From NCBI GenBank assembly GCA_050253415.1, contig JBFWJC010000005.1, positions 1 to 64,000 of the forward strand: DNA of 64,000 nucleotides, given 5' to 3'. Shown here piece after piece: positions 1 through 32,276 of the stretch; the first letter of the stretch is position 1, and the number at the start of each line of letters is the position of its first letter. A model generated the notes under the pieces. It made no database searches, was not told the DNA's origin, and saw only the letters and a list, made by a program, of their open reading frames with translations. The translations under genes and the position numbers were made by a program. The DNA is from Pedobacter sp. Its GTDB lineage: Bacteria; Desulfobacterota; Desulfuromonadia; Desulfuromonadales; Syntrophotaleaceae.

Positions 1-127
1 CCAAGACAGTAGCCGCCATAAAAAACGGTCCGCCTGGAATACCAGCAGGGCCGTCTTGTTTTATATTTCAGGATGATTTCTGGCTGATCACTGGCTACTT
101 TTCTGCGTTTCTCGAAAATCCTGCATT
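1..127 (+). repeat. Exact direct repeat of 19769-19895 (right end of the CcdA-like module); probably continues upstream of the window
   Basis: Base-for-base identical to 19769-19895; identity stops right after CCTGCATT. Confidence 0.95.
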
Positions 128-184
128 GTGAGAAAACCCCGCCTGGCGATCCGGACGGGGTTTCTTTGCTTCATAACTCGTGAT
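108..184 (+). repeat. Module junction repeat J1 (core + hairpin + distal box)
   Basis: TTTCTCG-aaaatcc-TGCATT, GTGAGAAAACCCCGCCTGG-CGAT-CCGGACGGGGTTTC hairpin, then TGCTTCA-taactcg-TGAT; same motif recurs across 1-31 kb. Confidence 0.9.
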
Positions 185-186
185 AT

Positions 187-1962
187 TTAAAACAGGTCTG
201 CAAATGGCTTCTCAAGCCGACAAAGGGAAAGGAGGTCATCAGGCGGAAGAGGACGACTGAATAAAAAGCCTTGTCCAAATGAGCACCCTAATTGGCATAG
301 CAACTGTTTCTGTTCCTGGGTTTCTATCCCCTCTGCGACCACTTCAAGATCTAAGCTTTTTGAAAGTGCTAGAACGGCCTCCACAATAGCAAAGTCATAT
401 TGGTCTGTCAGGATATCTCCCACAAAACCCTTGTCAATTTTTAGGGTTGTAATGGGAAGGTGCTTCAAGCGACTTAATGAAGAGTGTCCTTTGCCAAAGT
501 CGTCAATTGCCAACCAGACCCCCATTTTATTCAAGGAAGCAAGGCGGGGAATGGTTTCTCTGGCGTTTTCCATAGCGATGCTTTCGGTAATTTCCAATTC
601 CAACCATTGTGGATTAAGGCCCGTTTCGTTAAGGACCTGGAAAACAGACTCCAAAAAGTTCAGTTCCTTAAATTGGTGCATAGAAATATTAACACTCACT
701 CGAAGGGGAGGTATTCCAGCATCCTGCAATGTTTGCGCAAAATCGCAAGCTGTGCGGAGAATCCATTTGCCTATGGGAACGATCAAACCCGTATCTTCGG
801 CTAATGGGATAAAGTCGCTAGGGGGAACCATCCCCTTGTCTGGGTGCTGCCAACGCACAAGTGCTTCTAACCCAACAATCTGACCAGAGGACAAATTAAC
901 CTTCGGCTGGTAGTGCAAAACAAGTTGTTCCTTTTCCAAGGCCCGCCGCAGATCATTTCCAAGCAAAAGGAGTTCCTGCGCCCGGGCATCCATTTCCTTA
1001 TTATAAAACTGGAAGTTGTTTCGCCCCTTCTTTTTGGCAGCATACATCGCGATATCCGCTCGTTTTTGCAGTTCTTCAATGTCATCTGTGGGGGTCGTAT
1101 AGAGGCTGATACCGATACTGGCAGAAACGTAGCAATCCTGACCTCTAATGGGAAAAGGTTGTTCTAAACAATCAAGAATCCTTTGAGCGATATGCGTAAC
1201 CTGTTCAGTTCCTGAAATATCTTCGACTACAAATACAAATTCGTCCCCACCTAGTCGGGCAATTGCATCCATCTCTCTCAATTGCGTCTGTAAGCGCTTG
1301 GCTACCCCACCCAAAAGTAGGTCTCCAGCCTGATGCCCTAGGGTATCGTTTACTTTTTTGAATAGATCCAGATCAAGAAAAAGAAGAGCGACCTGCTTGC
1401 CGCTTCGATCTGCCCGGGCAATGGCCTGTTTGAGACGATCCTGAAAAACGCGTCGATTCGGAAGTCCTGTCAGAAAATCCTGCTCTGAAAGGCGTTTTAA
1501 ATGTCCCTTCTGCACAAGAAGTTCCAAATCTGCAAGCTTTCGGTCGGTGATATCCATCCAGCTACCAACAATCTCGATAGGCTTCTCGGTGGAGTCTCTC
1601 AGAAGCCTTAACTCATCGTGCATCCAACGATAAGTGCCATCTTTGTGTTTAAAGCGGTATTCATGGACAAGTCTTCCGGCTTGGAAAAGTTTCGCTTGAT
1701 TCTCAAAAGCCTGTGTCCTGTCCTCGGGATGAACTCTGCTGGCCCAAAAGTCTGGATTTTCGATACACTCAGAAGGCTCGTAGCCAAGTTGGTCTCTAAT
1801 ATTCTCGCTAACGTATGTCGCTCCCTTGTCTCCATCAGGCTTAAGGGTGTAAATAACAGCAGGACATATGGCCAAAATCATTTCCAGCCGTGAGACATCG
1901 AGGTCCTCAGGGCTAGTTTTATCCTGGTTCTTTCCTAAGTTGTTCAACCGATGGAAACCCAT
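187..1962 (-). CDS. PAS-GGDEF-EAL diguanylate cyclase/phosphodiesterase
   Basis: PAS_3-like VHPED...GTYRWMHD; DLDLFKKVNDTLGH and RLGGDEF; LEALVRW, ELEITES, DDFGKGHSSL. Confidence 0.95.
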   Translation of the reverse strand: MGFHRLNNLGKNQDKTSPEDLDVSRLEMILAICPAVIYTLKPDGDKGATYVSENIRDQLGYEPSECIENPDFWASRVHPEDRTQAFENQAKLFQAGRLVHEYRFKHKDGTYRWMHDELRLLRDSTEKPIEIVGSWMDITDRKLADLELLVQKGHLKRLSEQDFLTGLPNRRVFQDRLKQAIARADRSGKQVALLFLDLDLFKKVNDTLGHQAGDLLLGGVAKRLQTQLREMDAIARLGGDEFVFVVEDISGTEQVTHIAQRILDCLEQPFPIRGQDCYVSASIGISLYTTPTDDIEELQKRADIAMYAAKKKGRNNFQFYNKEMDARAQELLLLGNDLRRALEKEQLVLHYQPKVNLSSGQIVGLEALVRWQHPDKGMVPPSDFIPLAEDTGLIVPIGKWILRTACDFAQTLQDAGIPPLRVSVNISMHQFKELNFLESVFQVLNETGLNPQWLELEITESIAMENARETIPRLASLNKMGVWLAIDDFGKGHSSLSRLKHLPITTLKIDKGFVGDILTDQYDFAIVEAVLALSKSLDLEVVAEGIETQEQKQLLCQLGCSFGQGFLFSRPLPPDDLLSLCRLEKPFADLF

Positions 1963-2020
1963 TCGTAAACTTTCCTAAACGATGGACATGTCAAAAATAG
2001 AATTTTAGCCGAAACTTAAT

Positions 2021-2053
2021 AAAAAACGTCCATCTTTGGCCAAAGATGGACGT
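2021..2053 (-). terminator. Intrinsic terminator, probable riboswitch expression platform
   Basis: Perfect palindrome ACGTCCATCTTTGG/CCAAAGATGGACGT followed by a T run on the minus strand, between riboswitch and CDS. Confidence 0.75.
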
Positions 2054-2081
2054 CACCTTTTGAAGTTATTCGCTTCTCTCT

Positions 2082-2153
2082 TCGGTAACCCAGCCATCCC
2101 CTAGGGACCTGAAGCTTTGCGTCGCCGGATTACTCCGGCTTTGCTCTTATCGG
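2082..2153 (-). ncRNA. GEMM-I (c-di-GMP-I family) riboswitch, A20 variant
   Basis: Minus strand CCGATAAGAGCAAAGCCGGA-GTAA-TCCGGCGACGCAAAGC...GATGGCTGGGTTACCGA fits GEMM-I P1/P2/P3; lies upstream of a GGDEF-EAL gene. Confidence 0.88.
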
Positions 2154-2319
2154 TGATTTGTCTTTAAATTAACTAAACAGCATAAAAATATATTCGTCAA
2201 GGAGATTTATTAAATCCTAAATCGTCCTTGGTTATCTAGCCACTCCTGATATGTGCGGCCCGACTGCTCAATATATCGTTCCATATTGTTTTCAGCGGTC
2301 AGATGTGGTTAAAGACCAG

Positions 2320-2350
2320 ATTCTTATGGATCCTGCAATGCGAGAAAAAC
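2320..2350 (+). repeat. Module junction J2 (core, hairpin lost)
   Basis: ATTCTTA-tggatcc-TGCAAT-GCGAGAAAAAC; upstream 2222-2296 resembles 11566-11650. Confidence 0.85.
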
Positions 2351-3256: not shown

Positions 3257-3340
3257 TGGCTACGCATATACGGACGACACCCGGACAAGGTTCGGAGTAA
3301 CGTCCTAAGGGTCTGATAGGGGGTCTGATAGGGGGTAGGG

Positions 3341-3417
3341 GGTCCGATAGAAGCTGCATTGCGAGAAAACCCCGTCTGGCGAACCAGACGGGGTTTCTGT
3401 GTTTTGGAACTTGTGAT
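3341..3417 (+). repeat. Module junction J3
   Basis: GGTCCGA-tagaagc-TGCATT-GCGAGAAAACCCCGTCTGG-CGAA-CCAGACGGGGTTTC-TGTGTTTTGGAACTTGTGAT. Confidence 0.9.
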
Positions 3418-3434
3418 TTATGGGAAATAAAATA

Positions 3435-4937
3435 TCAGGGAGTTTCCCGTTTAAAGCTGTTGCGGAGAATTTGCGCGGCAGTCAGAGTTTTTCCTATCCC
3501 GACAAATACCACGAAAAATTCCAACCGTCCCAGAATCATTCCGAAGGTTTCGGTCCAGAGCAGCCCCGCGGGTGCGGAGGCTGAAGTAACCCCCACGGAA
3601 AGGCCCACGGTTCCCAGGGCACTGGCGAATTCGAATAAACTCTCTTTCAGGGAATAACCAAAGGACGCCACAATTCCCGTCCCCATCATCAGGGTAAGCA
3701 TGTAAAGAAATGTGAAGGCCGCGATCTGGCAAATATCACTATCCTGCAAAAAGCGTCTTTGTTCTCCCACCCAAACATCGGGTTCCGTGACGGCATGGCG
3801 GGGTAAAAACATCCTGCGCAATTCGGTGGTCAGACTCCGGTAAAGAACGTATACTCTGTATTGTTTAAGACCTCCAGCCGTGGATCCGGTGCCACCGCCC
3901 ACGATCATCAGTCCTATAAGAATCAACCATCCCAAGCCGTTCCAGTTCCCGTAGCCAACCGTGGAAAAGCCCGTCGTCGATAGAGCTGACACGGTTTCAA
4001 ATATAGCGACTCTTACCTGTTTGCCTGCGGATGCATAAAGCTGCACCGTCACCCCGGAGAAAATGACCAATATTGCAACCGGGATCAGTGTCATCTGAAG
4101 CCGGATTTCCCCATTTTTAAAGAAAGACCGAAACTTGCCATGCATCAGGGCATACCCTGTGACGAAGTTCATTGTTCCAAGGAGCATCAGTAGTATTGTG
4201 ACGGATTCCACTCCCGGGCTATTCCAGTATCCAATCGACGCCGTCCTGGTGGAGAAACCACCGGTTGATAATGCCGCAAATGCATGGTTTATGGCATCAA
4301 ACCATCCCATGCCGGCAAAATACAAAGCAATGCATCCGGCCACAACATAACCACTGTAGATAGTTATGACCAACTTGGCGGAACGGCGTACGTTGGGGAC
4401 CAGCTGATCGGCCCTTCCTTCCGCTGCGCTCAAACCGCTGCCACTAGGACCTGTGAGCGCGCTGAGCATGATGATGGCGAGGCCGGCCCCGCCTGCGAGT
4501 TGCATGACGCTACGGAACAAAAGCAGCAGGTGGCATGCATTCTCGACATTTACGACAGATAACCCCGTGGTGGTCCAGGCACTGGTCGCCTCGAAAACCG
4601 CCTGAGTGAAATTGAGCCCTCCAATCAAGATGAAAGGGACTGCCCCCACCAAAACCGCCAGCAGCCATGAAAGAACGACTACTACGGCGCCTTCCTGCAA
4701 AGATAGAGTGGCTCCTCCCCGTGGCAGCAAGCCGCGCCAAATTATTGTGCCCAGAACACTTAAGCCTATCCCGGGGAGGGCAACCCCCCATGCAAGAGCC
4801 CATTCCCCGGGATAAAATGGTAGCCCGAGACAGGGAGCAACAATGATCAGCCCCACCAGGACGCTGACAAGCCCAGTATAACCGAGCATAATACGCCAGC
4901 GATATCGCATAAACTCCGTATATCGTTGCCGGCTCAT
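3435..4937 (-). CDS. trkH: Trk potassium uptake membrane protein
   Basis: Four pore-loop motifs (FEATSAWTTTG, STGGFS, STTGFS, GTVGLS) and GSTAGGLK; multi-TM. Confidence 0.93.
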   Translation of the reverse strand: MSRQRYTEFMRYRWRIMLGYTGLVSVLVGLIIVAPCLGLPFYPGEWALAWGVALPGIGLSVLGTIIWRGLLPRGGATLSLQEGAVVVVLSWLLAVLVGAVPFILIGGLNFTQAVFEATSAWTTTGLSVVNVENACHLLLLFRSVMQLAGGAGLAIIMLSALTGPSGSGLSAAEGRADQLVPNVRRSAKLVITIYSGYVVAGCIALYFAGMGWFDAINHAFAALSTGGFSTRTASIGYWNSPGVESVTILLMLLGTMNFVTGYALMHGKFRSFFKNGEIRLQMTLIPVAILVIFSGVTVQLYASAGKQVRVAIFETVSALSTTGFSTVGYGNWNGLGWLILIGLMIVGGGTGSTAGGLKQYRVYVLYRSLTTELRRMFLPRHAVTEPDVWVGEQRRFLQDSDICQIAAFTFLYMLTLMMGTGIVASFGYSLKESLFEFASALGTVGLSVGVTSASAPAGLLWTETFGMILGRLEFFVVFVGIGKTLTAAQILRNSFKRETP

Positions 4938-5602
4938 CAGGATTCTTCCCCGGTCAATAGTCTTAGCACTCGATCATAACAGTCGGGCCGGCTTATGATA
5001 ATGAGGCGATCCCCGCCGCGGAGGAATGTTTCCCCTCGGGGAACGATGACGTTCCCGTCACGCAGGATCCCACCGATCAGTGCCCCTTCGGGCAAGGTCA
5101 TGTCACGCAAGGTTTTATCCGCACCCGGTGCATCCTCCCTCAAGGCGACTTCGGAAATAGTTACGCGTCCCTCGGCGAGGGGAATCAGATTGGCGATATC
5201 CTCGAATCCGGCCCGTTCTTCCAGGATGCGGGCGATAATTTGGGTCGAACTGAAGGCGACGCTGACACCCAATTCACGGAATACCTCCTCGTTCTGCGGA
5301 TCGTTGACAAGGGCTACCGTCCGCGGCACATGGAACATTTTGTGGGCGATCTGACATACCGCAAGATTGTCCTGATCCTTCGATGTCAATGCCACCAACA
5401 CATCGGCGAGGCGTGCGCCGGCTTCTTCGAGTACATGGGGATCGCTACCATTACCATGCATGACCAAGGCCTTAACCCGGCGGGAGAGGTTTCTGGCCTC
5501 CGCTTCATCAGCAAGGATCAAGGAGACCACATACCCTTTGCTGGCGAACTGTCGGGCAAGGTAATAGAGGAGTTTGCCGGATCCGACGACGATCACACGC
5601 AT
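4937..5602 (-). CDS. trkA: TrkA/Ktr regulatory subunit (RCK_N + RCK_C)
   Basis: Start re-set to MRVIVVGSGKL (RBS AGGAGG); Rossmann GxG motif; C-terminal IVPRGETFLRGGD. Confidence 0.9.
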   Translation of the reverse strand: MRVIVVGSGKLLYYLARQFASKGYVVSLILADEAEARNLSRRVKALVMHGNGSDPHVLEEAGARLADVLVALTSKDQDNLAVCQIAHKMFHVPRTVALVNDPQNEEVFRELGVSVAFSSTQIIARILEERAGFEDIANLIPLAEGRVTISEVALREDAPGADKTLRDMTLPEGALIGGILRDGNVIVPRGETFLRGGDRLIIISRPDCYDRVLRLLTGEES

Positions 5603-6048
5603 GGTTGACCCTCCTGCCTTTTTTCCAGGCTCGCCAGAAAGGCCTCCGCCATCAAATTGGTCGGGCTGACGGTTTCTATGTCGAATTCCCGATAAATTCC
5701 CTCCCTGCGGGGATCGAATACCCTCGCCAACACTTTGGGGACATTGAACACCTTGCGGGCTACCTGGGCCACCATAAGATTGACATTGTCCTCTTCGGTA
5801 GTCGCTAGCAGACAATCGGCCCTGTCGGTTTTCGCGGCCCGCAAAACCTCGATTTCGACCGCATCGCCGACGATACGGAATCCACTGAATTCAGCCGTCA
5901 GCAGATCAAACGCCGATTCGTTGATATCAATGACGACCACGCTGCAACCGACTTCGCTTAGTAGCCCCGCCAGCATGGAGCCGAGTCGGCCACAACCAAC
6001 GATCACTACATACTGTGGCCATCCATCCTGCTTTTTCAAATACATCAT
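5593..6048 (-). CDS. trkA: TrkA-N (RCK_N-only) protein
   Basis: VVIVGCGRLG, GDA, ATTEEDNVNL; no RCK_C. Confidence 0.85.
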   Translation of the reverse strand: MMYLKKQDGWPQYVVIVGCGRLGSMLAGLLSEVGCSVVVIDINESAFDLLTAEFSGFRIVGDAVEIEVLRAAKTDRADCLLATTEEDNVNLMVAQVARKVFNVPKVLARVFDPRREGIYREFDIETVSPTNLMAEAFLASLEKRQEGQPCV

Positions 6049-6051
6049 TGA

Positions 6052-6729
6052 TTACTCCTGCCCCAGCAGCAGAGGACCCGTTTTTTTCATCACCAACCTG
6101 TTGAGGTTGCTCTGGGACGGTATATATCCGGGATTCAGCTCCAGAGCGGTCCGGTAGAATTTCTGGGCTTCGAGGGACTTGCCCTGCATCTCACAATAGG
6201 CTCCCATAAGATTAAAGGCCTCCGGGCGATCGGGTTCAAGGCCTGTAGCATACCGGGCGTGGGCAATCGCATTGCCGAGTTGCCCCTCTGCGGCACAACG
6301 CTTGGACAAGGCGATCCAGCCATTGTAATCGTTACCCGGATCCGCTCCCTGTTCAGGACGGCTGAGCACCTTGCGGACCGCGTCCCGCAACTCCCGTGGC
6401 GCAAACGGTTTTTCAATAAAATCCAGAGCGCCTAGCTTCATGACTTCCACCGCATTGGTCACCGTTCCGAATGCCGAAATGACAATAACCTGGGATCGCC
6501 TGGGTCTTTTTTCCAATTGCCGCAACACTTCCACTCCATCGATACCCGGGAGCTTAAGATCAAGCAACACCAGATCGAAATTCTCTTCGGCCGACATGCG
6601 CAAACCTTCCTCGCCCGTGGTTGTGGTACGCACCTCATACCCCTTGGGCTCAAGGGTTTGCCGGACGGTGAAGAGGATGTTTTTTTCATCATCAATAACG
6701 AGAATTTTTGCCTTGGTCTCTTTAGACAT
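6052..6729 (-). CDS. Response regulator with C-terminal TPR
   Basis: ILVIDDE, LLDLKLPG, EKPF; TPR-like PEAFNLMG...YRTALELNP. Confidence 0.88.
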   Translation of the reverse strand: MSKETKAKILVIDDEKNILFTVRQTLEPKGYEVRTTTTGEEGLRMSAEENFDLVLLDLKLPGIDGVEVLRQLEKRPRRSQVIVISAFGTVTNAVEVMKLGALDFIEKPFAPRELRDAVRKVLSRPEQGADPGNDYNGWIALSKRCAAEGQLGNAIAHARYATGLEPDRPEAFNLMGAYCEMQGKSLEAQKFYRTALELNPGYIPSQSNLNRLVMKKTGPLLLGQE

Positions 6730-8593
6730 GGTTGTTCTCCCCGGATGGCTTCATGCAACCGGAAGACGATGCGGCCTTCAGAACAAAGGTGAAGACACTT
6801 CCCTCGCCTACCGTCGATTCGACCCAGATGCTTCCACCGTGGGCCTTGACAATTTCCTTGCAGATGGCCAAGCCCAGACCGCTGCCGGCCTTGCTGTCAC
6901 CTTTAACCTGGACGAACTTGTCGAAAATCCGTGAACGGTATTCCGCGGGAATGCCCGCGCCGTCGTCGGAAACGCCCAGGTAAACTCGCTCCTGATCACC
7001 TTCGGCCGTAATCCGGATATGGCCACCTTCCGGAGTGTACCGCAATGCATTGGAAATAAGATTGCTGATCACCCAGGCGATTTTTGTCGGATCCGCCAAG
7101 ACATCAGGGGTTTCCGGTTTGACCCACGAGCTCAATTCCAGTTTTTTGGCTTTGGCCTGATCGTAGAATGCCGCCAATGTTTTTTCGAAAAGATAGGCAA
7201 CGTTCATGGGCTCGATTTCCATCTCGACCCGTCCGGATTCAAGCCGCGACAAATCGAGAAGGTCACCGACGAGTGCCCGCAAGCGATCGGTCTCCTCCCG
7301 GGCAACCCGAACCAATTCACGTTCTCTTTCGGGCCATTGATCCGCTTTTTCCTGCAGGAGGTTTATACTCATGGAGATACCGGTAAGAGGCGTTTTCAAT
7401 TCGTGGGATGCCGCCAGGACAAACTCGCTTTTCAACCGGTCAAGTTCCTTCAGCCGGGTTATATCTTGTAGCAAAATAACGATCCCCTGAATTTGCTTGC
7501 CTCCTTCAGAACGTACAGGAGTGACGGAAAATCGGAAATATTGCCGACTCTCATCGTCACCGAAGGAAATTTCGGCCAGCTCCGGGGAAAGAGTCGCGAC
7601 CTGTCCTGTTTCCGCAGTTTGCCGGATGATAGCAATGAGTTGCTCATGCGGCAGTAATTCGGACACGGGCCGGCCCTGGGCTTCGCCCGGAGACAGATTC
7701 AGAAGTCTTGCGGCCTGGGGGTTGACGGCGGAAATGTGGAACCTCTCATCCACAACGATCAAACCGTCGCCGATGCTGCGTAGAATTGCCTCTCCCATGC
7801 GTTTTTCTGCGATGAGACGTCCTACGTTGAGATCGTGAAAAGCTTTGAGCTTTTGACTCATGGTGACGATCTGGCTGGCTAAAAGTCCGAGCTCATCTCC
7901 GGCGGGAACCTCCAGGGTGAAATTGTAGTCGCCGTTCGCAAGCTGTTCGGTGACGCGGGTCATAGCAGCCAGTGGTCGGAGGAGAATACCGGAAAGTAAA
8001 ATGCTGAAGGCCAGCCCAACAGAACCTGATGCCGCGCCTACCACCGTCATGGACCATATGGTTTTCACAGAAAGACGATGTGCATGGCGGGAAGCTCTTT
8101 CCATGGCTTTCTGATTCATTTCGCGTAATACGAGACACGATTTGCGCACCTGCATGAATCGGGGTAGAAGTTGCTCCCGGTAAAAAACCAGGGCCTTTTG
8201 ATGATCTTCGTAACCCGCATTCGTCATGTCCTGAAACAGGGATAGGAAACTGCGGTATCCCGAATCGATATCGGCCACCACCCGGTCCTCTCCCTGTTCC
8301 GTCAAATTATCCCGGGCCCGGCCCAGCCACTGGGCAAATTCAACCTGGTTATCCCGGAATTGCTCCAGACTGGTTTTCCGGTCCCCGATCAAAAACAGAA
8401 GCGCGGCGCTATCCTGTCGTTCGAGGTGATTGATCATGCTTTCCGCCGCTTGGACACTCAGTTGATTTTCACGCAGAATAGCCTCGCTGGCCCGTCCGAG
8501 CTGATAAAGATTGACTACGGCTACGGCCCATACCATCATCATCAGAGCCAAAATAAGACAGTAGCCACCGAGAATTTTTGTCCGTAATTTCAT
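6722..8593 (-). CDS. KinB-like sensor histidine kinase (periplasmic helical domain, HAMP, PAS, HisKA, HATPase)
   Basis: Two TM segments, HAMP GDELG, ASHELKTPL, NLISNALRY, GSGLGL. Confidence 0.92.
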   Translation of the reverse strand: MKLRTKILGGYCLILALMMMVWAVAVVNLYQLGRASEAILRENQLSVQAAESMINHLERQDSAALLFLIGDRKTSLEQFRDNQVEFAQWLGRARDNLTEQGEDRVVADIDSGYRSFLSLFQDMTNAGYEDHQKALVFYREQLLPRFMQVRKSCLVLREMNQKAMERASRHAHRLSVKTIWSMTVVGAASGSVGLAFSILLSGILLRPLAAMTRVTEQLANGDYNFTLEVPAGDELGLLASQIVTMSQKLKAFHDLNVGRLIAEKRMGEAILRSIGDGLIVVDERFHISAVNPQAARLLNLSPGEAQGRPVSELLPHEQLIAIIRQTAETGQVATLSPELAEISFGDDESRQYFRFSVTPVRSEGGKQIQGIVILLQDITRLKELDRLKSEFVLAASHELKTPLTGISMSINLLQEKADQWPERERELVRVAREETDRLRALVGDLLDLSRLESGRVEMEIEPMNVAYLFEKTLAAFYDQAKAKKLELSSWVKPETPDVLADPTKIAWVISNLISNALRYTPEGGHIRITAEGDQERVYLGVSDDGAGIPAEYRSRIFDKFVQVKGDSKAGSGLGLAICKEIVKAHGGSIWVESTVGEGSVFTFVLKAASSSGCMKPSGENNHV

Positions 8594-8683
8594 CTAAAGT
8601 ACCCCGTGGGAAATCCTGAAAAACAGGATGAAACAACCGTCATTAACGTAAGTGTATCACTCGATGTTATTGTCATATTATTG

Positions 8684-8699
8684 TGCGAGAGGTATGCCA
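8684..8699 (-). promoter_or_regulatory. Sigma54 promoter of the kinase-RR-trk operon
   Basis: TGGCATACCTCTCGCA = GG-N10-GC, about 90 bp upstream of the kinase start. Confidence 0.7.
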
Positions 8700-8749
8700 G
8701 AAAAAAACGTGCAAAATAGGGTTTTTTGAAAGGGCAAAGAGGGGAAGTG

Positions 8750-8796
8750 ATTGCATTATGCAATAAAAAGGCTTTTTAAGTATTGCATTTTGCAAT
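8750..8796. promoter_or_regulatory. Paired palindromic enhancer (UAS) sites
   Basis: ATTGCATTATGCAAT (8750-8764) and ATTGCATTTTGCAAT (8782-8796), 32 bp apart, upstream of the sigma54 motif. Confidence 0.7.
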
Positions 8797-8826
8797 GTCG
8801 CATCTGGAACAGCTTCGGTAGGAAAA

Positions 8827-10161
8827 TCATATGCTGTAGAGTTTGCGCTTACGCCAGAGTGTAGCCTGGTCGATGTCGAGAATTTCCGAGGCTTCCTGTA
8901 GGGTAGAGGACCGGGCGATCACCCGTCGGATATGTTGTTCCTCAATTGTCGCCAGGGAAACGGAATCCCCGGGGCGAGGGAGTACCTTTCCGGGCGCCAG
9001 ATTGTCGGGGAATAATTCCGGTCCTATCCTATCGGCCCGGCATAGGATCACGGCTCGCTCAATGACATTCCGTAACTCACGCACGTTGCCCGGCCATCGA
9101 TAGTACATCAGGATTTCCATCGCTTCGGGAGTGAAATCCCGTATGGTTTTATGGTTCTGCCGGCTAAAGCTGATTAACATGTCACGGGCCAATACCTCGA
9201 TATCTTCGCTCCTCTCGCGCAGGGGGGGCAACTCGATCGTTATCACGTTAAGACGGTAAAATAGGTCTTCTCGGAAACGTCCTGCAGCAACCGCCGCCGC
9301 TAAATCAATATTGGTGGCAGCAATAATGCGAACATCGGCTTTGCGAGTACGCGGGTCGCCGACCCTCTCGTATTCCCTGTCCTGGACAAACCGCAGGAGC
9401 TTTGCTTGCAAGGCGGATGGCAGGTCGCCGATTTCGTCCAGGAATAAAGTACCCCCATCGCAGGCTGCTATCCTCCCCGCCTGATCACGCATGGCCCCGG
9501 TAAAAGCTCCTTTGACGTGGCCAAACAGCGCACTTTCCAGCAACTCGGGAGAAAGCGATGGGCACGAAACAACCGCCAGAGGACGTTTAGATCGTGGACT
9601 CCAAGAATGAATTGCCCGGGCTAACATCGTTTTGCCGGTTCCGTTTTCTCCGCGCAAAAGAATATTTGCCTCGGAGTCCGCTACCTGCCTAGCCATCTGC
9701 AAAACCTTGCACATAGCTGGACTAGTGCCGGAAAGATCTCCCGGGGGATACTGTTGATTCAGGTCATCCCTCAGATTCCGCACCTGTTCTTCCATGAGCC
9801 TCAAGTCAACCACTTTTTGAGTTACCATGCGGACCTGATCGGGCCCGAAGGGTTTCGGTAAATAATCGAAAGCCCCTCCCTTAATTGCCAAGACCGCCGA
9901 ATCAATTGTCGCAAATGCCGTAATCACAATCACCCGGGTCCCGGGCATTTCCGCCAGCAGACGGGGTAGCAGTTTGAGTCCGTCATCGGCACCCAATCTG
10001 AGATCCAGAAAAACGAGATCGAAAAATCCATCCGATGTCCGCATCAAAGCATCAGTTGCATTTTGCGTGATTGTTACATGATGTCCCCCCGATTCCAGGC
10101 ATACAGCAAGGGTTTTGCAGATATTAATCTCGTCATCGATAATCAGGATATCCAGAGTCAT
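8827..10161 (-). CDS. AlgB/NtrC-family sigma54-dependent response regulator
   Basis: REC, GENGTGKT, GAFTGA, WPGNVRELRN, HTH ATLWRKRK; start re-set to MTLDILIIDD. Confidence 0.93.
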   Translation of the reverse strand: MTLDILIIDDEINICKTLAVCLESGGHHVTITQNATDALMRTSDGFFDLVFLDLRLGADDGLKLLPRLLAEMPGTRVIVITAFATIDSAVLAIKGGAFDYLPKPFGPDQVRMVTQKVVDLRLMEEQVRNLRDDLNQQYPPGDLSGTSPAMCKVLQMARQVADSEANILLRGENGTGKTMLARAIHSWSPRSKRPLAVVSCPSLSPELLESALFGHVKGAFTGAMRDQAGRIAACDGGTLFLDEIGDLPSALQAKLLRFVQDREYERVGDPRTRKADVRIIAATNIDLAAAVAAGRFREDLFYRLNVITIELPPLRERSEDIEVLARDMLISFSRQNHKTIRDFTPEAMEILMYYRWPGNVRELRNVIERAVILCRADRIGPELFPDNLAPGKVLPRPGDSVSLATIEEQHIRRVIARSSTLQEASEILDIDQATLWRKRKLYSI

Positions 10162-10694
10162 TCTTTTCTCCGAAAGAACAGCACGAACCGGCATTTATAT
10201 TAATAAAGTCGCTATAGAAGCCTTCCACAGCCTCCGGTCCTTTATGGTCGTCACAACCTTACCAGGTAAAGTTATCAACTTTTTTATCAAGGAAAGTTGT
10301 CTCAGAAAAGGTGTCCAAAAAGTTGTAGCATATTTTAACGACTTTTAAAAAAATATGAATGATGAAAAGGGGGCTGAAATGCTAGAAAGGGGTATCCCTG
10401 ACTCTTTGGACAGCCATCTAATGCTCGCCGTCAAATTGTCTCCGCAGTCGCTTCCCAGGACTATGCTCAAAAACTCATCCTCGGAAGATTAGAAGTGATA
10501 TACGGCAATGTAGTTCTTTAGCAGCAGGCAGGGGGGCACCTTTGGGATTATCTCTGAGTCGCGCGCGTTGCCGGGTGCAGGTGGTGGATTTTACCAACTC
10601 CCTGTGTAGTTTCTTGATCCTTTGGGGGTGGCGCATTCTCCCAAACCCAGAACTTGAAGCGCTTCTTGCAGGTCGTCAAAAATCAAGTCAGACC

Positions 10695-11024
10695 TCAGTG
10701 GGTCCAGTCGATGATCTTTAAATCTGGTCCAAGATTTTTTTCGACCGCTCTTTTTATGGCTGCGAAGTGCGGGCAAGGAGATCCGATAGGATTGCCTTTT
10801 TTCATGCAGGAGGCAAACACGATGGCCTCTGCTCCTCGATCAACCATCATTTTAGCTCTAGTTACCGTTTTTTTCCCGGAGCAGCCTCCGCATGAGAGAA
10901 ATCCTATGATCTCCACCGGACCGGTTTTCTCGAAAGCCAAGGCTCCCTCCTTGGCTACCTTGAAATCGTTACTCCCCGGGCACATATCCTCGGTCAGTTG
11001 GCAGCGAATGATACCTACCTTCAT
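10695..11024 (-). CDS. CGGC-domain metal-binding protein
   Basis: MKVGIIRC...MCPG...SCGGC...ASC...CPH. Confidence 0.85.
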   Translation of the reverse strand: MKVGIIRCQLTEDMCPGSNDFKVAKEGALAFEKTGPVEIIGFLSCGGCSGKKTVTRAKMMVDRGAEAIVFASCMKKGNPIGSPCPHFAAIKRAVEKNLGPDLKIIDWTH

Positions 11025-11225
11025 GTTGTTGATCCTTTCTTCGAAATGTCGTCGATCTGGTTCCTCTCCCGAAATACATGCCAAGTTTATTGCATTCGAA
11101 TATGCATATATCATTTTGTCCAGATATTTTCAAAGAAAACCTCGAGGACACCCGGAAAGGTTGCAATCATTTTAAAATCGGTACTGCTAAAGAGGCCTCT
11201 TTAATTCCCCCCTGGCGAAGAACAT

Positions 11226-11277
11226 ATTCTCAGAATCTTTGTTCTGCGAGAAAAACCCGCCCGGAGACTCAGGCGAG
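11226..11277 (+). repeat. Degenerate module junction J4
   Basis: ATTCTCA-gaatctt-TGTTCT-GCGAGAAAAACCCGCCCGG...AGGCGAG. Confidence 0.65.
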
Positions 11278-11674
11278 TAGTAGCTTGGAAGGTCGCCATC
11301 ATCCATTAATGCATAATGAGGCCAGGGAAAATCCTCCCCAATGTCGGTTTCAACGCCAACCCCTTTCTCAACTTCTAAAAAGTTCTACATGCTTCTACAT
11401 AGGTGGAAAGAGTTCAGGAGAAGAGCAGCTTTAGGACTGCTTTTCCTTTGTTTTTCATAAAGCCATCACAGGACCATTGATTTCGGTAAATATTCATGAC
11501 AACCCCCTCCGTCTGGAGAGTTCATCCCAGGCAAAAAGGAGGCAGTCATGGGAATGAGCATTGAATCGCCCCTAGGTCTCTAGACACTCCTGGCATGTGC
11601 GCCCCGACGAGGGCAGAAGTGTCCTACATATTGTTTCATATTGTTTACAGGGATTAGATGAGGCTGAAAATCAA

Positions 11675-11810
11675 ATAATTACGACTCCTGCAATATGAGA
11701 AAACTCCGCCTGGCGAACCGGACGGGGTTTTTGTGTTTTGGAACTCGTACAATGCGAGAAAATCCCACCAGGAGGTCCGGAAGGAGATTCTATGCTTTAG
11801 AACTCCTGCG
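11675..11810 (+). repeat. Tandem module junctions J5 and J6
   Basis: ATAATTA-cgactcc-TGCAAT + hairpin, then gaactcg-TACAAT-GCGAGAAAATCCC...GCTTTAGAACTCC; the second copy overlaps the stop codon of the adjacent CDS. Confidence 0.85.
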
Positions 11811-15412: not shown

Positions 15413-15434
15413 TTTTGAGACTATCCTTTCTTCG

Positions 15435-17246: not shown

Positions 17247-17294
17247 GAGGGAATTACTCCTTAATATTCTCTTATCCTAAATTTCATACCTTTT

Positions 17295-17352: not shown

Positions 17353-17353
17353 G

Positions 17354-17896: not shown

Positions 17897-17908
17897 TTCA
17901 TTTCATCC

Positions 17909-18026
17909 TATGAACGGTTCATGATAACCGGCGGCGATGCGAACTTATGCTCCCCACTTCAATTTTTGTTTTGCTTTTCAATTTTGCACAGCCGTATTTT
18001 CCGTACGGTTGATTTTCTGGTTAGCC
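17909..18026 (-). other. attC site
   Basis: Minus: GGCTAAC-cagaaaatcaaccgtacgg...ccgccggttatcatgaacc-GTTCATA, 118 bp. Confidence 0.8.
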
Positions 18027-18030
18027 ATGT

Positions 18031-18879: not shown

Positions 18880-18893
18880 TTTATATTCTCCTT

Positions 18894-19270: not shown

Positions 19271-19306
19271 GTATTTTTCGACTGGATAAACAAGACTTGG
19301 GCGTAG

Positions 19307-19383
19307 ATTCTTAGAAACCCTGCAATGCGAGAAAACCCCGTCTGGCAATCCGGACGGGGTTTCTGTGTTTCAGGACTAGTTAA
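19307..19383 (+). repeat. Module junction J8 (closest to consensus)
   Basis: ATTCTTA-gaaaccc-TGCAAT-GCGAGAAAACCCCGTCTGG-CAAT-CCGGACGGGGTTTC-TGTGTTTCA; TTGTTTCA box at 19262. Confidence 0.9.
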
Positions 19384-19417
19384 AAATAAGCCGTTATGGG
19401 GGGGCTTGTCTTGGCCC

Positions 19418-19630
19418 TCAAAATCTCCTCTTGCAAGAGCCAAAAATGCCATCCCTCTGGATGCGCTCATTGTAGTTATCGATTGCGGTTTTGTTTTCCT
19501 CAAGCCAGTTTTTGTCTTCTTCGATCATTTCAAGCAAATCGTCTATCGGCTCAGAACGCCCCGCCTTAACGTCTTCCATCGCCTGAATGGTCTTGAGGTC
19601 AACATATTTTTCGCAGTCTGTTTTTACCAT
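19418..19630 (-). CDS. Orphan CcdA-like antitoxin
   Basis: C-terminal WLEENKTAIDNYNERIQRDGIFG..KRRF matches the CcdA family pattern; RBS AAGGAGG; no toxin gene adjacent. Confidence 0.72.
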   Translation of the reverse strand: MVKTDCEKYVDLKTIQAMEDVKAGRSEPIDDLLEMIEEDKNWLEENKTAIDNYNERIQRDGIFGSCKRRF

Positions 19631-19875
19631 CGGTGCCTCCTTAGGGTGCGGACTTTCCATGGCAAATCCTACCATCCCTAGCGCTTGTGCCGCCACCCAT
19701 AATCTGTTGCCGCCCCTAGAAAAACAGCTTCAAGCCAGTATGTCTTCTCTATATCTATTTATTTAATTCCAAGACAGTAGCCGCCATAAAAAACGGTCCG
19801 CCTGGAATACCAGCAGGGCCGTCTTGTTTTATATTTCAGGATGATTTCTGGCTGATCACTGGCTACTTTTCTGCG

Positions 19876-19952
19876 TTTCTCGAAAATCCTGCATTACAAG
19901 AAAACCCCGCTCGGATCGCCAAGCGGGGTTTCTGTGTTTCAGAACTCGTGAT
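19876..19952 (+). repeat. Module junction J9
   Basis: TTTCTCG-aaaatcc-TGCATT, AGAAAACCCCGCTCGG-ATCG-CCAAGCGGGGTTTC, TGTGTTTCAGAACTCGTGAT. Confidence 0.9.
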
Positions 19953-20004
19953 TCGCGAGACAGTCCAAGAATGGAGAACGAGTGCTTAGGAAATTTATGG
20001 CCTT

Positions 20005-21669: not shown

Positions 21670-21852
21670 ATGATTATCCCCCCTTGATGCGGCACACTCC
21701 ACTTCAAAGCGGCCAGCGTGATTATGGCTTTAATTTTAATCGCCTCCAATCTTACTTGGATAGCCCAGAAAATAAAACTATTTTGTCTAATAAATTGTTT
21801 CAGGTGTCCCCGGGGGGGGCGAGCCTTGGGAAAGCATCGGTTGTTCTGCTTT

Positions 21853-22312
21853 CCCTGCAACCGGAACACTTAAGCGATTATCCCTATCAGGAAGGAGCGG
21901 CTTTGCGCTAAGAACGTCTGGAAAGTCTTGCCTGACAACAGGGGGAGGGGTTTGTTTAAGGCCTGCTAGTTGGTTTTGATCCGTATAGGCAGCACTAAAA
22001 AACCGGGGTCGAATCAGAATTAATCCGTTTTGAATAGATTCTTGAATAGATACTTTTGCTAATTTCACATGTGTTTCAAGTGGGTTGAGTCTTTTCCTGA
22101 ATAGATACTTGAATAGATTCAACCTGTCAATTGGGCGGGAAGACCTCGAGCTCCAAAAAACCTGCAAAGTGGAAGTCAGCGCTACCACCACGGGATTTGA
22201 CCAGCCCGGTGGTGGTGGTTTTGACTTCCACTTTGTCGGAGACTTGCCGGAAGATGGTGGTTCTGACTCCACCTTTGTCTAGAACAGGCTCCGGGAGCGC
22301 CAACTTATGCGT
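21853..22312 (+). repeat. Non-coding element B, copy 1 (starts at junction core J10)
   Basis: Colinear with 28163-28579; starts at CCCTGCAA; TGAATAGAT direct repeats and inverted copies of the GTCAG motif. Confidence 0.9.
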
Positions 22313-23135: not shown

Positions 23136-23192
23136 TGGCTTATTAAGCCTAAAATACGAGAAGGGCCCGACCTTTTTTTAGGCGGGTCTTTC
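23136..23192 (+). repeat. Degenerate module junction J11
   Basis: TGGCTTA-ttaagcc-TAAAAT-ACGAGAAGGGCCCGACC...GGCGGGTCTTTC. Confidence 0.55.
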
Positions 23193-23925: not shown

Positions 23926-24228
23926 ACGCACCCTCCTGTTGAGAGATATCAAGACTTTGAAATGGAGCGAAGTAGGCTTTTACCCAGGCAGGCATGGTAT
24001 CCGCACCCCATATCGGAAAACCACTTGATGGCTGGGCGTATCACCGAAAGAAGATGTGTGTTGTAGAAAATATTGCCAAAGCAGCCTAAAAAATATAACC
24101 GAAATACACAAAACTTCAGAAATATTTTTACAGGAGTAGCTTCTACTCAAAGGTACTTCATTTGAAAGTGGGACCATTTCAGGTCGTGTTCTAGACCTAA
24201 TTATAGCATCGTGGAGAGGGGCAATCGC

Positions 24229-24308
24229 CGATTCCCGCAAACCCTGGTTTAAGAGAAAAGCCCCCGATCCAGCGATCAAGGGCTTTTGGTGTCTGACGAG
24301 TGGTGATT
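24229..24308 (+). repeat. Highly degenerate module junction J12
   Basis: TCCCGCAAA...GAGAAAAGCCCCCGATC-CAGC-GATCAAGGGCTTTT-GGTGTCTGA-cgagtgg-TGAT. Confidence 0.45.
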
Positions 24309-24508
24309 TCCAGGACAGGGCATCGAGCCCCCTTGAAGTTATGATCTCACACCTCCGAAGTGCCTAGGAAAGAATGGGCGATTCACCCTTCATTTCTTAC
24401 CGATTCGATCCCATTTCTTCGCACTGGATTCCGTGCCATATGAAAAGTGTTTGGGCTATAACCGTCCCATATCCAGCATTCACCACAACCACGAAAGGAG
24501 AAAAGATT

Positions 24509-26346: not shown

Positions 26347-26420
26347 AGCATTAAAGTCTCGATGGATAGAGGTAAGGTAGACTTAATAAAAGTCTCGGGA
26401 TAACCTGCCCACACATATAT

Positions 26421-26496
26421 TGCCCTATAAAACATGCATTATTAGAAAATCCCGCCTGTCGATCCGGACGGGTCTCTGTATTTTATAACTCGTGAT
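26421..26496 (+). repeat. Module junction J13
   Basis: TGCCCTA-taaaaca-TGCATT, AGAAAATCCCGCCTGT-CGAT-CCGGACGGG, TATTTTA-taactcg-TGAT. Confidence 0.82.
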
Positions 26497-26519
26497 TTAT
26501 AGGACGGGTTTTTCTACGG

Positions 26520-28115: not shown

Positions 28116-28162
28116 CATATATTCGGGGGCAAGGGGAACACTTTTTTGGACATTCTTACATT

Positions 28163-28579
28163 CCCTGCAATCCGGAACACTTAAGCGATCATCCCTACCA
28201 GGAAGGAGCGGAACGGCTGGACAGTCTTGCCTGACAACGGGGGGAGGGGGTTGTTTAAGCTCTCCTAGTTGGTTTTGGTCCGAATAGGCAGCACTAAAAA
28301 ACTGGGGTTGAATCAGAATAAATCCGTTTTGAATAGATTCTTGAATAGATTCTTGAATAGATACTTTTGCTAATTTCACCTGTGTTTCAAGTATGTTGAG
28401 TTTTTTTTGAATAGATAATGAATAGATTCAACCTGTCAATTCTGCGGAAGAGCTCGAGCTCCCAAAAAACCTACAAAGTGGGAGTCAGTGCAACCACCAC
28501 GGGATTTGACCAGCCAAGGGGTGGTGGTTCTGACTCCACCTTTGTCTAGAATAGGCTCCGGGAGCGACAACTTATGCGT
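28163..28579 (+). repeat. Non-coding element B, copy 2 (starts at junction core J14, ATTCTTA-cattccc-TGCAAT at 28152-28171)
   Basis: Colinear with 21853-22312; lacks one inverted GTCAG unit and has one extra 12-bp TGAATAGAT unit. Confidence 0.9.
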
Positions 28580-29934: not shown

Positions 29935-29967
29935 ATTGCATCTCCCGATTGCCAATGGTGTGCGTCG

Positions 29968-30216
29968 CTACTTAAGCAAGCGGACTTTTTCGGAAAGGTC
30001 TCCGAGGATAATGGCCGCCAGTTTCTCCATGCCCTCCGAACGGATGTGTAATACCTCCCCCTCTGTTATTTTGCCGCTTTTAGAATTTTCTGCCTTATAA
30101 CGGTAAATATGTTTTCCCAACGTGTCGTACCAACTACCGCTTTGGGGCCCGCAATTATGGCCATATACGTTCACAATTTCGTGATTGTTTATCGCAATCT
30201 TGATGGAAAAGGGCAC
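29968..30216 (-). CDS. Small hypothetical protein
   Basis: GTG start after GGAGG; 82 aa. Confidence 0.5.
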   Translation of the reverse strand: MPFSIKIAINNHEIVNVYGHNCGPQSGSWYDTLGKHIYRYKAENSKSGKITEGEVLHIRSEGMEKLAAIILGDLSEKVRLLK

Positions 30217-30877
30217 TTTGAGGTCCTCCAAAAAATAGAATGACTTTAGAATCGATGAAATCCAAAGGCACTCCAGGGAAGGCAATTTTTGGTGTCTGTG
30301 GCTTTTTAGCGGGCCGTTCCTAGTCTGTGAAAGGTCTCCTAGATATGTTCAGGAGGCCATAACTTTCGCTGCAGGCGGCATGTAATCAGCCTCTGGGGCA
30401 GGGGAACGGTAGCCAAAATAAGCATTTATTCAGACTAGGTCGCATGCAGATTAGCTGTTTTTTGCGCAAAGGGGCGGGGACCCTTTTGGGAACAGGTATG
30501 GGCACACTTCTGGCGGATTGCGACCTCCCTGCCGCCTTCGGGGTGAATATGCTCCTCGACCAATGGCTTTTCTGGCCTTGTCCTCTGCCCCATAACCCTA
30601 TCAATGAAGGCTCCGGAAATCAAGGGGGGTGAATTCAGAAAAACATAGTGAAACCAGGTTGTTATCTAACACTTTTGTTAGGTTGATATCCCGTTGCTGC
30701 ACACTGAAAATTCGAATATCTTTAAATAAGGAATCGCCTCGATACATTAACGTTGATACTTTGGCGACAAGAAAGGGGAGGGTGGGCAAAAGGCGAATCT
30801 CAACATATGCGGAAAAGTTGGGGTTCACCTTTTTGCTTATTTCAAGTTTTATAAATGGTTAGGCGGCAAAACCTTGG

Positions 30878-30947
30878 AGTCTGAGAAACCCTGCAATGTG
30901 AGAAAACCCTGCCTGGCGATCCGGACGTGGTTTCTGTAATTGCAAGT
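30878..30947 (+). repeat. Module junction J15 (last one recognised)
   Basis: AGTCTGA-gaaaccc-TGCAAT-GTGAGAAAACCCTGCCTGG-CGAT-CCGGACGTGGTTTCTGT; abuts the stop codon of the next CDS. Confidence 0.85.
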
Positions 30948-32276
30948 TTATAACTTTCCCCCTTCGTCAACAGATGGCAGAGATAATCGCACGGTAGTTC
31001 CCTGGCCCAGCAAAGAGAAAAACTCGAGTTTGCCGTGATGCTCTCTGACGATGCGTGCAGAAACGGAAAGACCGAGCCCGGTTCCGCCGTCTTGGTGTTT
31101 GGTAGTAAAGAACGGTTCGGTGATATGGGGTAGCACTTCCGGGTCAATACCCTCACCCTCGTCTCGCACCTCTACAACGCAATGCTGGAGGGTTTCGTCG
31201 AAATAAGTCGCTACGAAAACACCACCTTCTTTATCCCCAAGCGCTTGGCAGGCATTGGTAAGGAGGTTGATAACTACCTGTTCCAGTTGTTGAGAAATGC
31301 CATTGACTCTAGGGAGGTCAGGCGCATAGGAAATCTCATAGGAGAGGGTGGACTTCCTGAGTAAATTGCCGGCGAGACGAACCGCAACGCTCACGACTTC
31401 ATTCAGATCTACCAAGCCAAACATTTGTTCCGGTTCCGACTTCACAAACTGCTTCAAGTCCTTGACAATGTCAATGATACGCTTGGTGCTAACCTTCATA
31501 TCGGCAAGCATCTGGCGTATTTCCTTGTCCATTGTGGAGGGATCCATCCCCGCCAGATTTTCGATGTCCTGTTCCTTCAGAAAATGTGAAATAACCGGCA
31601 AAGCCTCCTCGAAGAACTGCGCCAGGAAATCGGTATTGTGCATCAGCACGGCGTTAGGGGTGTTTATTTCATGGGCCACTCCGATCGCCAATTCGCCCAG
31701 CGAAGCCAAGCGCAACGACCGTTCCGCCTGAATCTGCCGGAGTTTTTCAACCCCCATGTGGGTAAGCAGATCCACCATGGCTTTATTAAGCTCCAAGACT
31801 TCAACCACTTTCTGCCGGGAAAGTATGGGCACCTTCTTCAAAGCTTCTAAATAGGCGTTCTCATCAAACCCGAACTGTCGGGCTTGCCGGCGAAAGAATT
31901 CTTCATCCGGGGGCTCATATAAGAACTGTCCAAAAAAAATGTTGGCCAGATGGCAGCCTTCAAACACAAAGGGGATACCGATATCAACTAATCCGTTTTT
32001 GCACCGGGATTCAAGGTACCCGCCTTCCGGCAGGTCAAGTTGTTCATGAAGGTGCCTTGTTAGATTGGTATCGCTCTCATGGCAGCGAGCACGCGTTTCA
32101 GGGTGCTGGCGATGAAATTTTGTGCAGATGTCCTGCCAGCCGGCAGCCACGAGGACCGTTCCGTCAACATCGAGGATTGCTCCGAGAAAACCGGATACTT
32201 TCCAAATCTTGTCCATCAGGTTCTGGACAGCATTAATGTCTACAATATCGGTAAGTTGTAATTTAATGTGTTTCAA
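30948..32276 (-). CDS. PocR-domain sensor histidine kinase
   Basis: GWQDICTKFHR...C..SD...CKNGL..GQF (PocR); VAHEINTP; GTGLGLS. Confidence 0.9.
   Translation of the reverse strand: MKHIKLQLTDIVDINAVQNLMDKIWKVSGFLGAILDVDGTVLVAAGWQDICTKFHRQHPETRARCHESDTNLTRHLHEQLDLPEGGYLESRCKNGLVDIGIPFVFEGCHLANIFFGQFLYEPPDEEFFRRQARQFGFDENAYLEALKKVPILSRQKVVEVLELNKAMVDLLTHMGVEKLRQIQAERSLRLASLGELAIGVAHEINTPNAVLMHNTDFLAQFFEEALPVISHFLKEQDIENLAGMDPSTMDKEIRQMLADMKVSTKRIIDIVKDLKQFVKSEPEQMFGLVDLNEVVSVAVRLAGNLLRKSTLSYEISYAPDLPRVNGISQQLEQVVINLLTNACQALGDKEGGVFVATYFDETLQHCVVEVRDEGEGIDPEVLPHITEPFFTTKHQDGGTGLGLSVSARIVREHHGKLEFFSLLGQGTTVRLSLPSVDEGGKL

Follow-up and report, generated by a model that had tools for sequence, protein, structure and literature searches.

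The window analysed here, a stretch of 64,000 nucleotides (nt), is the first 64 kb of contig C5 (JBFWJC010000005.1, positions 1 to 64,000) in the Pedobacter sp. assembly GCA_050253415.1 (G000; 4.1 Mb, 18 contigs). Its first 31 kb carry an array of gene modules divided by a repeated junction, each full junction unit consisting of two palindromic sites, site I and site II, on either side of a hairpin. An earlier note on this DNA had described the array as an integron-like but distinct system; the observation was confirmed, and its interpretation was partly supported. The reading preferred here, to which we give about even chances, sees the region as mobile cassettes arranged in an array, with a bipartite site-specific recombination junction linking them and a small serine recombinase acting in trans. 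A cassette would extend between the centres of successive site I copies, in the order hairpin and site II, genes, a flank of about 130 nt with a likely promoter, and left half-site. An enzyme of the resolvase/invertase family would cut the central dinucleotide from elsewhere in the genome, like Hin and Gin at hix and gix. Directly repeated sites would then permit excision, re-insertion or unequal exchange, with site II as an accessory or secondary crossover site.

The anatomy of the junction was derived from 66 distinct copies taken from the present genome, its relatives and two named genomes. In an alignment of junction copies the unit measures about 100 nt and comprises a left box, (G)ATTCTTA-N5-CCTGCAAT, the stretch GAGAAAA, a GC-rich hairpin and a right box, TTTCTGTGTTTCAGAACTCGTGAT. 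Site I, formed by the left box and GAGAA, is a 26-base-pair (bp) imperfect palindrome laid out as 12+2+12 around a central CT, with TTCYYRNAAWYC as its left half and TTCTYRYAWTKC as its right half in reversed reading. Palindromic matches averaged 5.80 of 12 when the axis was placed on the CT, whereas 31 other axes gave 1.39-3.89; the best site I reads TTCTTAGAAACC CT GCAATGCGAGAA. The earlier note had seen tyrosine-recombinase arms around a 6-8-bp spacer, a description that is not supported: the dyad axis coincides with one dinucleotide, which reads CT in 59 of 64 copies. The right box, site II, forms another 26-bp palindrome with related half-sites, centred on GT in 49 of 57 copies (5.23 of 12 matches at the GT axis versus 1.95-3.44 elsewhere); in the relative G013 it reads GTATCAAAAGGG GT GGTTTTTGATAC. 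The two sites lie 59 bp apart, which is the exact spacing of the tandem pair of junctions at 11689 and 11748.

The hairpin between the sites covaries, with 84.1% of cells paired compared with 77.8% in shuffles (none of 500 reached the observed value) and at most 55% when the partners were slid. As TTTTCTC comes next on the gene strand, the hairpin can be read as an intrinsic terminator from either direction. The flank of about 130 nt to the left of the junction likely holds a promoter: hexamers of promoter type were found about 80-110 nt inside three left flanks, which speaks weakly for the promoters that the earlier note had assigned to the cassettes, while the scan as a whole gave 29 hits against 29.7 expected from shuffles. 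The TTGTTTCA-like box that the same note had placed upstream was recovered in two of three subfamilies of this flank; it resembles a half-site only, and the dyad sites found per junction number two. No Rfam family covers the junction unit. A sigma-54 or sigma-70 promoter as the identity of the core was rejected, as its spacing, judged by eye, does not fit.

Junction copies were scored with a 26-bp site matrix (64 distinct copies as input; a strong site scores 18 or more) and with a covariance model of the whole unit, from site through hairpin to right box (cut-off E<=0.01). The copies in the window are:

100..201, + strand: junction unit 1, with site I at 109-134 (TTCTCGAAAATC CT GCATTGTGAGAA), hairpin and site II; model 94.9 bits, matrix 32.6
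2321..2346, + strand: site I without hairpin, followed by a non-coding repeat cassette; matrix 28.2
3333..3434, + strand: junction unit, site I at 3342-3367; model 90.4 bits, matrix 18.5
11227..11252, + strand: degenerate site I and degenerate hairpin; matrix 16.6
11667..11827, + strand: tandem pair of units 59 bp apart, the second site (11735-11760) being a hybrid
15328..15429, + strand: junction unit, site I at 15337-15362, site II centre 59 bp on; model 81.1 bits, matrix 27.3
19299..19400, + strand: junction unit closest to consensus, site I at 19308-19333; model 91.3 bits, matrix 34.4
19868..19969, + strand: junction unit, site I at 19877-19902; model 91.6 bits, matrix 31.5
21843..21868, + strand: left half-site and CT, joined to a recurring non-coding cassette; matrix 3.1
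23137..23162, + strand: weak site I with short hairpin; matrix 16.0
24223..24315, + strand: junction unit, site I at 24232-24257; model 57.8 bits, matrix 27.1
26413..26513, + strand: junction unit with centre AT, site I at 26422-26447; model 69.9 bits, matrix 19.0
28153..28178, + strand: site I without hairpin, where a paralogue of the 21856 cassette starts (homology from -5); matrix 18.5
30870..30971, + strand: last junction unit in the window, site I at 30879-30904; model 69.5 bits, matrix 30.2

All 15 junction positions named in the earlier note hold at least the left box on the + strand, and the copy given as about 24236 truly lies at 24245. Matrix scores reach 18 at 12 of them (the others being 11240 with 16.6, 23150 with 16.0 and 21856 with 3.1, where only the left half and the central CT are present). 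Full units occupy ten positions; at 2334, 11240, 21856, 23150 and 28166 there is a left part only or a degenerate hairpin. The literal motif ATTCTTA-N7-TGCAAT, with up to two mismatches, gave 8 matches in the window against 3.03 expected (no shuffle of 100 reached 8), and six of the eight are + strand copies within 1-31 kb. Neighbouring junctions are, as had been noted, between 59 bp (11689 and 11748) and 7.9 kb (3355 and 11240) apart. The 24 plausible genes in 187-32276 are all on the - strand, so that each gene set ends at a hairpin. The modules hold 0-8 genes, and full junction units carry the terminator hairpin. Co-oriented, self-contained units whose cassettes recur in other contexts with boundaries at the core were thus recovered much as first described.

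Evidence for exchange comes from an all-against-all comparison of the flanks of 39 junction copies, from relatives and from public runs (X1-X4). Homology between paralogous modules stops or starts at the core, as the earlier note had observed, with at least 8 boundaries within -19 to +18 of the TG and the cleanest within 3 nt. A 782-nt cassette (hairpin, site II, a gene with an XRE-type helix-turn-helix (HTH), left half-site) occurs at C4:16665, C4:7839 and C2:21660 with 91-97% identity; both of its ends fall at C/TG (the slash marks the boundary), its neighbours differ in all three places, and two right-hand neighbours are entirely without hairpin. The cassette from 21856 recurs at 28166 and at C1:1395402, starting at the core each time. 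A 569-bp cassette has two copies that correspond core to core, and run X1 shows it as a single 577-nt unitig (19319-19895) at raised depth. The contig break at window 1-200 and C7:1-288 stems from this duplicated cassette, through which C7, reversed, runs into the start of C5; the array therefore has at least one further junction leftward.

Exchange between genomes follows the same boundaries. A 1.8-kb GGDEF cassette is 91% identical in G013 and G005, members of different genera; its end falls at CCCTG/ of site I and its beginning at GT/ of site II. A module with a PIN/AbrB toxin-antitoxin pair and a resolvase is 85% identical between two families, and its homology starts at site position 12. 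The site at 11735-11760 joins a site II left half to a site I right half through a GT centre. It has the appearance of a scar left by an exchange between site II and site I, and the same hybrid is found in G002. In runs X3 and X4, the 747 nt left of 11748 show no differences, while the gene to the right is about 5-6% divergent. The boundaries lie at positions 12-15 of the 26-bp site. Positions 10-12 accompany the left-hand cassette and position 15 the right-hand one, from which an exchanged overlap of about 2 bp would follow. These comparisons show, as far as aligned copies can, that exchange occurs at site centres and that cassettes recur in differing neighbourhoods within the genome and between genera. 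Three loose ends in the run contigs (19318, 28164 and 30890) fall exactly at the core and were set aside; at least that at 28164 is simply the paralogous locus C1:1395402. Two joints in run X2 (11749>19315 and 19799>19315) consist of 33-37 letters in repeat-rich contigs and were not counted as evidence of excision or circles.

The genome-wide model scan that the earlier note had proposed found the junction clustered and co-oriented. The matrix detected 42 strong sites in the genome, 12 of them in the first 31 kb of C5 and all of these on the + strand; the covariance model detected 33 full units, with 9 in the window at 1-31 kb. Nine of 33 units in 0.75% of the genome is not the scatter expected of repetitive extragenic palindromic (REP) sequences or bacterial interspersed mosaic elements (BIMEs). 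Other co-oriented clusters stand at the starts of C4 (5), C2 (3) and C7 (1), and the remainder are singles or pairs. Of the 40 relatives screened, 16 belong to the same family and 24 to other families; the unit is present in 14 and 8 of them, respectively. Co-oriented arrays occur there too: G009 has one of six copies within 15 kb, G005 one of five within 6.4 kb and G013 one of five. All six metagenome contigs with more than one site have them co-oriented. The named records that share the junction are a Geopsychrobacter genome, a Syntrophotalea genome and a Bifidobacterium contig.

Several relatives carry small genes of the resolvase/invertase family (about 190 amino acids (aa), PF00239 plus HTH_7) near junction copies. 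Such a gene lies 0-2.2 kb from a full unit or a bare site I in G002, G004, G009, G013 and G018, and 3.9 kb away in G034; a site stands upstream on the same strand at 9 of the 17 small-recombinase loci scanned. One resolvase subfamily, 80-86% identical among G004, G018 and the metagenome locus L084, scores about equally against gamma-delta resolvase and Gin. Site I lies directly upstream of this subfamily (range 24-110 nt), at 24 nt in G002 and at about 100 nt in G013 and L084. Its left neighbours differ in these three places, and its usual companion is a toxin-antitoxin pair. The 76 open reading frames (ORFs) around 18 metagenome copies include one serine recombinase and no tyrosine recombinase. 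The window itself holds no recombinase gene, and to that extent the earlier placing of the enzyme outside it stands. It has no tRNA anchor either. We infer that the cognate enzyme is a small serine recombinase; this fits better than a tyrosine enzyme, because it is serine recombinases whose sites have a 12+2+12 layout and are exchanged at the central pair.

A number of observations weigh against the serine-recombinase array. Beside the arrays of the present genome there is no small serine recombinase. Its sole such gene encodes a Gin-like invertase on contig C9 (172 bits to 4m6f) that has no upstream same-strand site, the nearest match (15.3) lying 2.3 kb upstream on the opposite strand. No site was found at 8 of the 17 scanned small-recombinase loci, and G005 has arrays and no PF00239 match. 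Tyrosine-recombinase trios lie 3.5-6 kb from two other arrays of the genome (C2 and C4). The expectation that differences from strains and relatives would break at the core held at several boundaries and failed at 3482, 10203, 15101 and 15970. The stretch 3482-10203 is common to G002, G003 and G004, where no junction is nearby, so mobility is not established for every module, the 7.9-kb Trk/two-component module being an example. Gene orientation with respect to the junction varies in other arrays (L044, the HTH cassette and an antiphage operon). A P-type ATPase gene borders the arrays of G005, G009 and G013; it was rejected as a conserved anchor, since its orthologue in the present genome, on C6, has no array. 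The public runs, moreover, are contigs that break at repeats, in which circles or rare excisions are not visible.

The site itself also raises objections. The right half of site I agrees with the consensus of Din-type DNA invertase sites only in the outer GAA, and some of the site I symmetry could be a by-product of the terminator, because this outer GAA also belongs to the terminator U-tract. Known invertases require inverted sites and a Fis-bound enhancer, and resolvases use three subsites, which in res are adjacent. Din sites are inverted and flank an invertible segment, whereas the junctions here are all direct repeats, so that deletion or fusion would be expected and not inversion; no enhancer was identified at the junctions, in work that included no search aimed at enhancers. 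In place of three adjacent subsites as in res, two dyad sites were found, split by a hairpin.

The strongest competitor, though an improbable one at roughly one chance in five by our estimate, is a tyrosine-recombinase core site with a 6-8-bp overlap (CCTGCAAT), served in trans, for example, by an enzyme from a trio or by XerCD. CCTG is the best-conserved stretch of the left part of the junction, a tRNA-Leu gene lies 1.6 kb from the C4 array, and trios with a RecD2-like helicase stand near two arrays. Tyrosine recombinases, which the earlier note had suggested seeking at the array end, were found near those arrays and not in the window. Such an overlap disagrees with the cassette boundaries, which leave only about 2 bp, and the 12+2+12 dyad suits serine sites, as far as those tabulated in PMC3241671 show. 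No tyrosine recombinase lies near the arrays of G005, G009 and G013, nor among the 76 ORFs around the metagenome copies. A fuzzy dif-pattern search found nothing within 7 mismatches, which shows only that the pattern was unfit for this genome. The elements in question, which are similar to recombinase-in-trio elements, have two or three tyrosine recombinases (376-647 aa) in tandem and then a RecD2-like helicase. They lie at C5:70600-78500 (beyond the window), C2:25500-33300 and C4:122-3594, with a 1021-aa Integrase_2 protein at the start of C4.

Somewhat less probable again is a REP/BIME-like terminator-promoter repeat with no dedicated enzyme, the mosaics arising by homologous recombination, gene conversion and duplication. 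This would suit the covarying hairpin as a good two-way terminator, the roughly 10 copies that stand single or paired after ordinary genes on C1, and the several synteny breaks off the core. It does not suit boundaries that gather within a few nt of two dyad centres and are not spread over the 90-220 nt or so of shared sequence, nor partners joined at the core without hairpin homology (21856, 28166, C4:7071 and C2:22442), nor the strong clustering and common orientation of the repeat. No RAYT-like gene stands beside the arrays, and matches to Y1 transposases lie elsewhere.

A single-strand HUH-type mechanism (IS200/IS605- or IS91-like), in which the hairpin is recognised and the cut made a few bases away, appears distinctly unlikely. 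The stem structure is kept while its sequence changes, and the distance between the crossover and the foot of the extended hairpin is 6-8 nt, both as this mechanism would have it. Hairpin-less sites nevertheless still act as junctions, and the double dyad symmetry would be left unexplained. The Y1 transposase matches are not near arrays, and there was no match to a Y2 (IS91-type) transposase, though the control likewise matched nowhere. Two copies of an IS110-type transposase were also seen, neither of them near arrays.

An unusual attC array of the CALIN type (cluster of attC sites lacking integron-integrases) served by the genome's own IntI can be practically dismissed and was ruled out as the identity of the junction, for although an IntI is encoded (447.6 bits, cut-off 265) and the cargo is like that of sedentary integrons, the crossover is CC/TG with no GTT, the repeat profile is unmatched in the true attC array, whose inverse-core ...AAC and core GTT... 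boxes beside intI are unlike the repeat, no IntI match at E<=1e-40 was found in G009 with its 13 copies, and many IntI-bearing relatives are without the repeat. The earlier description of the junction as non-attC is borne out by this separate integron.

Within the array, the following cassettes and cargo features were recognised:

187..2333, - strand: cassette with the PAS-GGDEF-EAL gene 187-1962 (Pfam); an orthologue in G013 has the same 3' unit
2080-2154, - strand: c-di-GMP-I (GGC type) riboswitch-like leader of the gene 187-1962 (Rfam 54.6 bits, below the gathering score of 59)
2393-3213, no strand assigned: 42-nt tandem repeats in the non-coding cassette after the 2321..2346 site
3435..11226, - strand: 7.9-kb module with TrkH, two TrkA, a response regulator, a PAS histidine kinase, a sigma-54 activator and a CGGC protein (Pfam)
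11797..15336, - strand: cassette with the PAS-GGDEF-EAL-receiver gene 11797-15048 (Pfam)
15430..19307, - strand: module with five small genes, among them one for a BglII-like endonuclease at 17354-17896 (Pfam)
19321..19889, no strand assigned: the 569-bp cassette with two genomic copies, the second bridging C7 (reverse) to the C5 start
19418-19696, - strand: weak CcdA-like ORF in the 569-bp cassette (Pfam)
30948-32276, - strand: PocR histidine kinase gene (Pfam), with the last junction unit just 3' of it

The cargo includes signalling genes, toxin-antitoxin pairs and a restriction-type nuclease, joined elsewhere in the genome by an operon of the cyclic-oligonucleotide-based antiphage signalling system (CBASS). 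The PAS-GGDEF-EAL cassette would be under the control of the molecule that its own enzyme makes or degrades, as the riboswitch match leads that gene; a second c-di-GMP-I match lies at 48423-48501 (- strand, 66.8 bits). The cassette at 11797..15336 has an 88% identical copy in G002 with another left neighbour. Of the module at 15430..19307, only 15406-15970 is common with the strain of runs X3 and X4, and no methyltransferase was recognised alongside its BglII-like restriction endonuclease domain (17354-17896, - strand). Units of about 42 nt with the hairpin motif AAGTGG-GAGTCAGARCTA-CCACTT occur at 2393-3213, 22347-22963, 22153-22237 and 28462-28546, in tandem in two non-coding cassettes and as an inverted pair in two others. 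In run X2 they are covered at much greater depth, Rfam gave no match for them, and the arrays could be a multi-hairpin RNA or a protein-binding array.

Two loci outside the window were also recorded. The CBASS-type operon, at C1:1399544-1404622 (DncV-like cyclase, E1/E2, JAB and SAVED effector), has a bare site I on one side and a full unit on the other, and beside it lies a paralogue of the window's metallophosphatase cassette. The low-GC contig C9 (40.7 kb, 43% G+C), which is probably a phage or plasmid, encodes the Gin-like DNA invertase, an ImuB-type polymerase and DUF5131 and DUF2726 proteins. A crude half-site scan beside the invertase found no gix-like sites.

Among known systems, integrons are the textbook bacterial route to stockpiling single genes, and the genome has a true one at C1:1750302-1759659, where intI, 8 kb from the end of C1, is followed by its own array of at least 12 classical attC cassettes (one duplicated) up to the contig end. 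The junction arrays resemble integrons and CALINs in their co-oriented cassettes with one structured site each, in their variable chromosomal places and in a cargo largely of unknown function, defence or toxin-antitoxin type. They differ in that the junction has neither attC architecture nor dependence on IntI. Integron cassettes are mostly promoterless single genes read from a common promoter, whereas whole units with a terminator, and probably a promoter, are found here; and the integron crossover lies within the hairpin, here at the centre of a palindrome beside it. The junction system fails every integron-defining feature examined here.

A wider proposal, which we put forward tentatively and at somewhat less than even chances, is that Desulfuromonadales of the Syntrophotalea/Geopsychrobacter group carry an undescribed integron-like capture system. 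In it, whole transcription units (promoter, genes and terminator) would be excised, exchanged between genera and stacked co-oriented by a cassette-borne small serine recombinase, accompanied by a toxin-antitoxin pair, acting on two hix-like palindromes that flank the terminator hairpin. The literature searches made here found no published description of such arrays; the repeat family may already be listed, uninterpreted, among the multicopy sequences in the supplements of the Pelobacter carbinolicus genome paper (PMC3543383). If true, a second and mechanistically different cassette platform, moving complete self-expressed units seemingly via a serine-recombinase-type site, would widen the view of how accessory genomes are built. 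The junction is short and well defined, hence searchable, and arrays could be mapped in metagenomes. As a natural, compact pairing of recombination site and terminator it could also interest builders of genetic tools.

The pdif modules of Acinetobacter plasmids, which are served by XerCD, are likewise gene modules bounded by short palindromic sites with the recombinase encoded elsewhere. The pdif sites are 28 bp long with a 6-bp spacer and alternate in orientation, whereas all sites here are co-oriented and have a 2-bp centre. The res sites of Tn3 and gamma-delta share with the junction a directly repeated, multi-part layout of several dimer-binding palindromes, and a site stands upstream of the resolvase gene in G002, G013 and L084 as well. 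They differ in occurring once per transposon, whereas many copies per genome flank unrelated cargo here.

The closest likeness at the level of the site is to the Din invertases, whose hix, gix, cix and pix sites, together with the six mix sites of the Min system, are tabulated in PMC3241671 (Table 3); hixL is given as TTCTTGAAAACC AA GGTTTTTGATAA and pixL as TTCTCCCAAACC AA GGTTTTCGAGAG. By that table, the junction site has the Din layout of a 12+2+12 dyad with a conserved central dinucleotide, and it shares the 26-bp length, the outer TTC...GAA and an AAAC-type inner half-site. The left half TTCTTAGAAACC agrees with the tabulated hixL left half at 10 of 12 positions, and the right half of site II in G013, GGTTTTTGATAC, with the hix right half at 11 of 12. 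Over 64 copies, the left half matches the consensus drawn from the table at a mean of 4.5 of 7 positions and the right half at 4.4 of 7. A further likeness is that exchange falls on the central dinucleotide. In some relatives a recombinase gene also lies directly beside a site, though not in the present genome or in G005. The tabulated Din centres are AA or GA, whereas those here are CT or GT; relative to the same table the right half of site I is weakly Din-like, and the junctions here are found between transcription units and not within genes. We read the arrays as a new form of site-specific-recombination cassette array, which stands a fair chance of being a distinct system.

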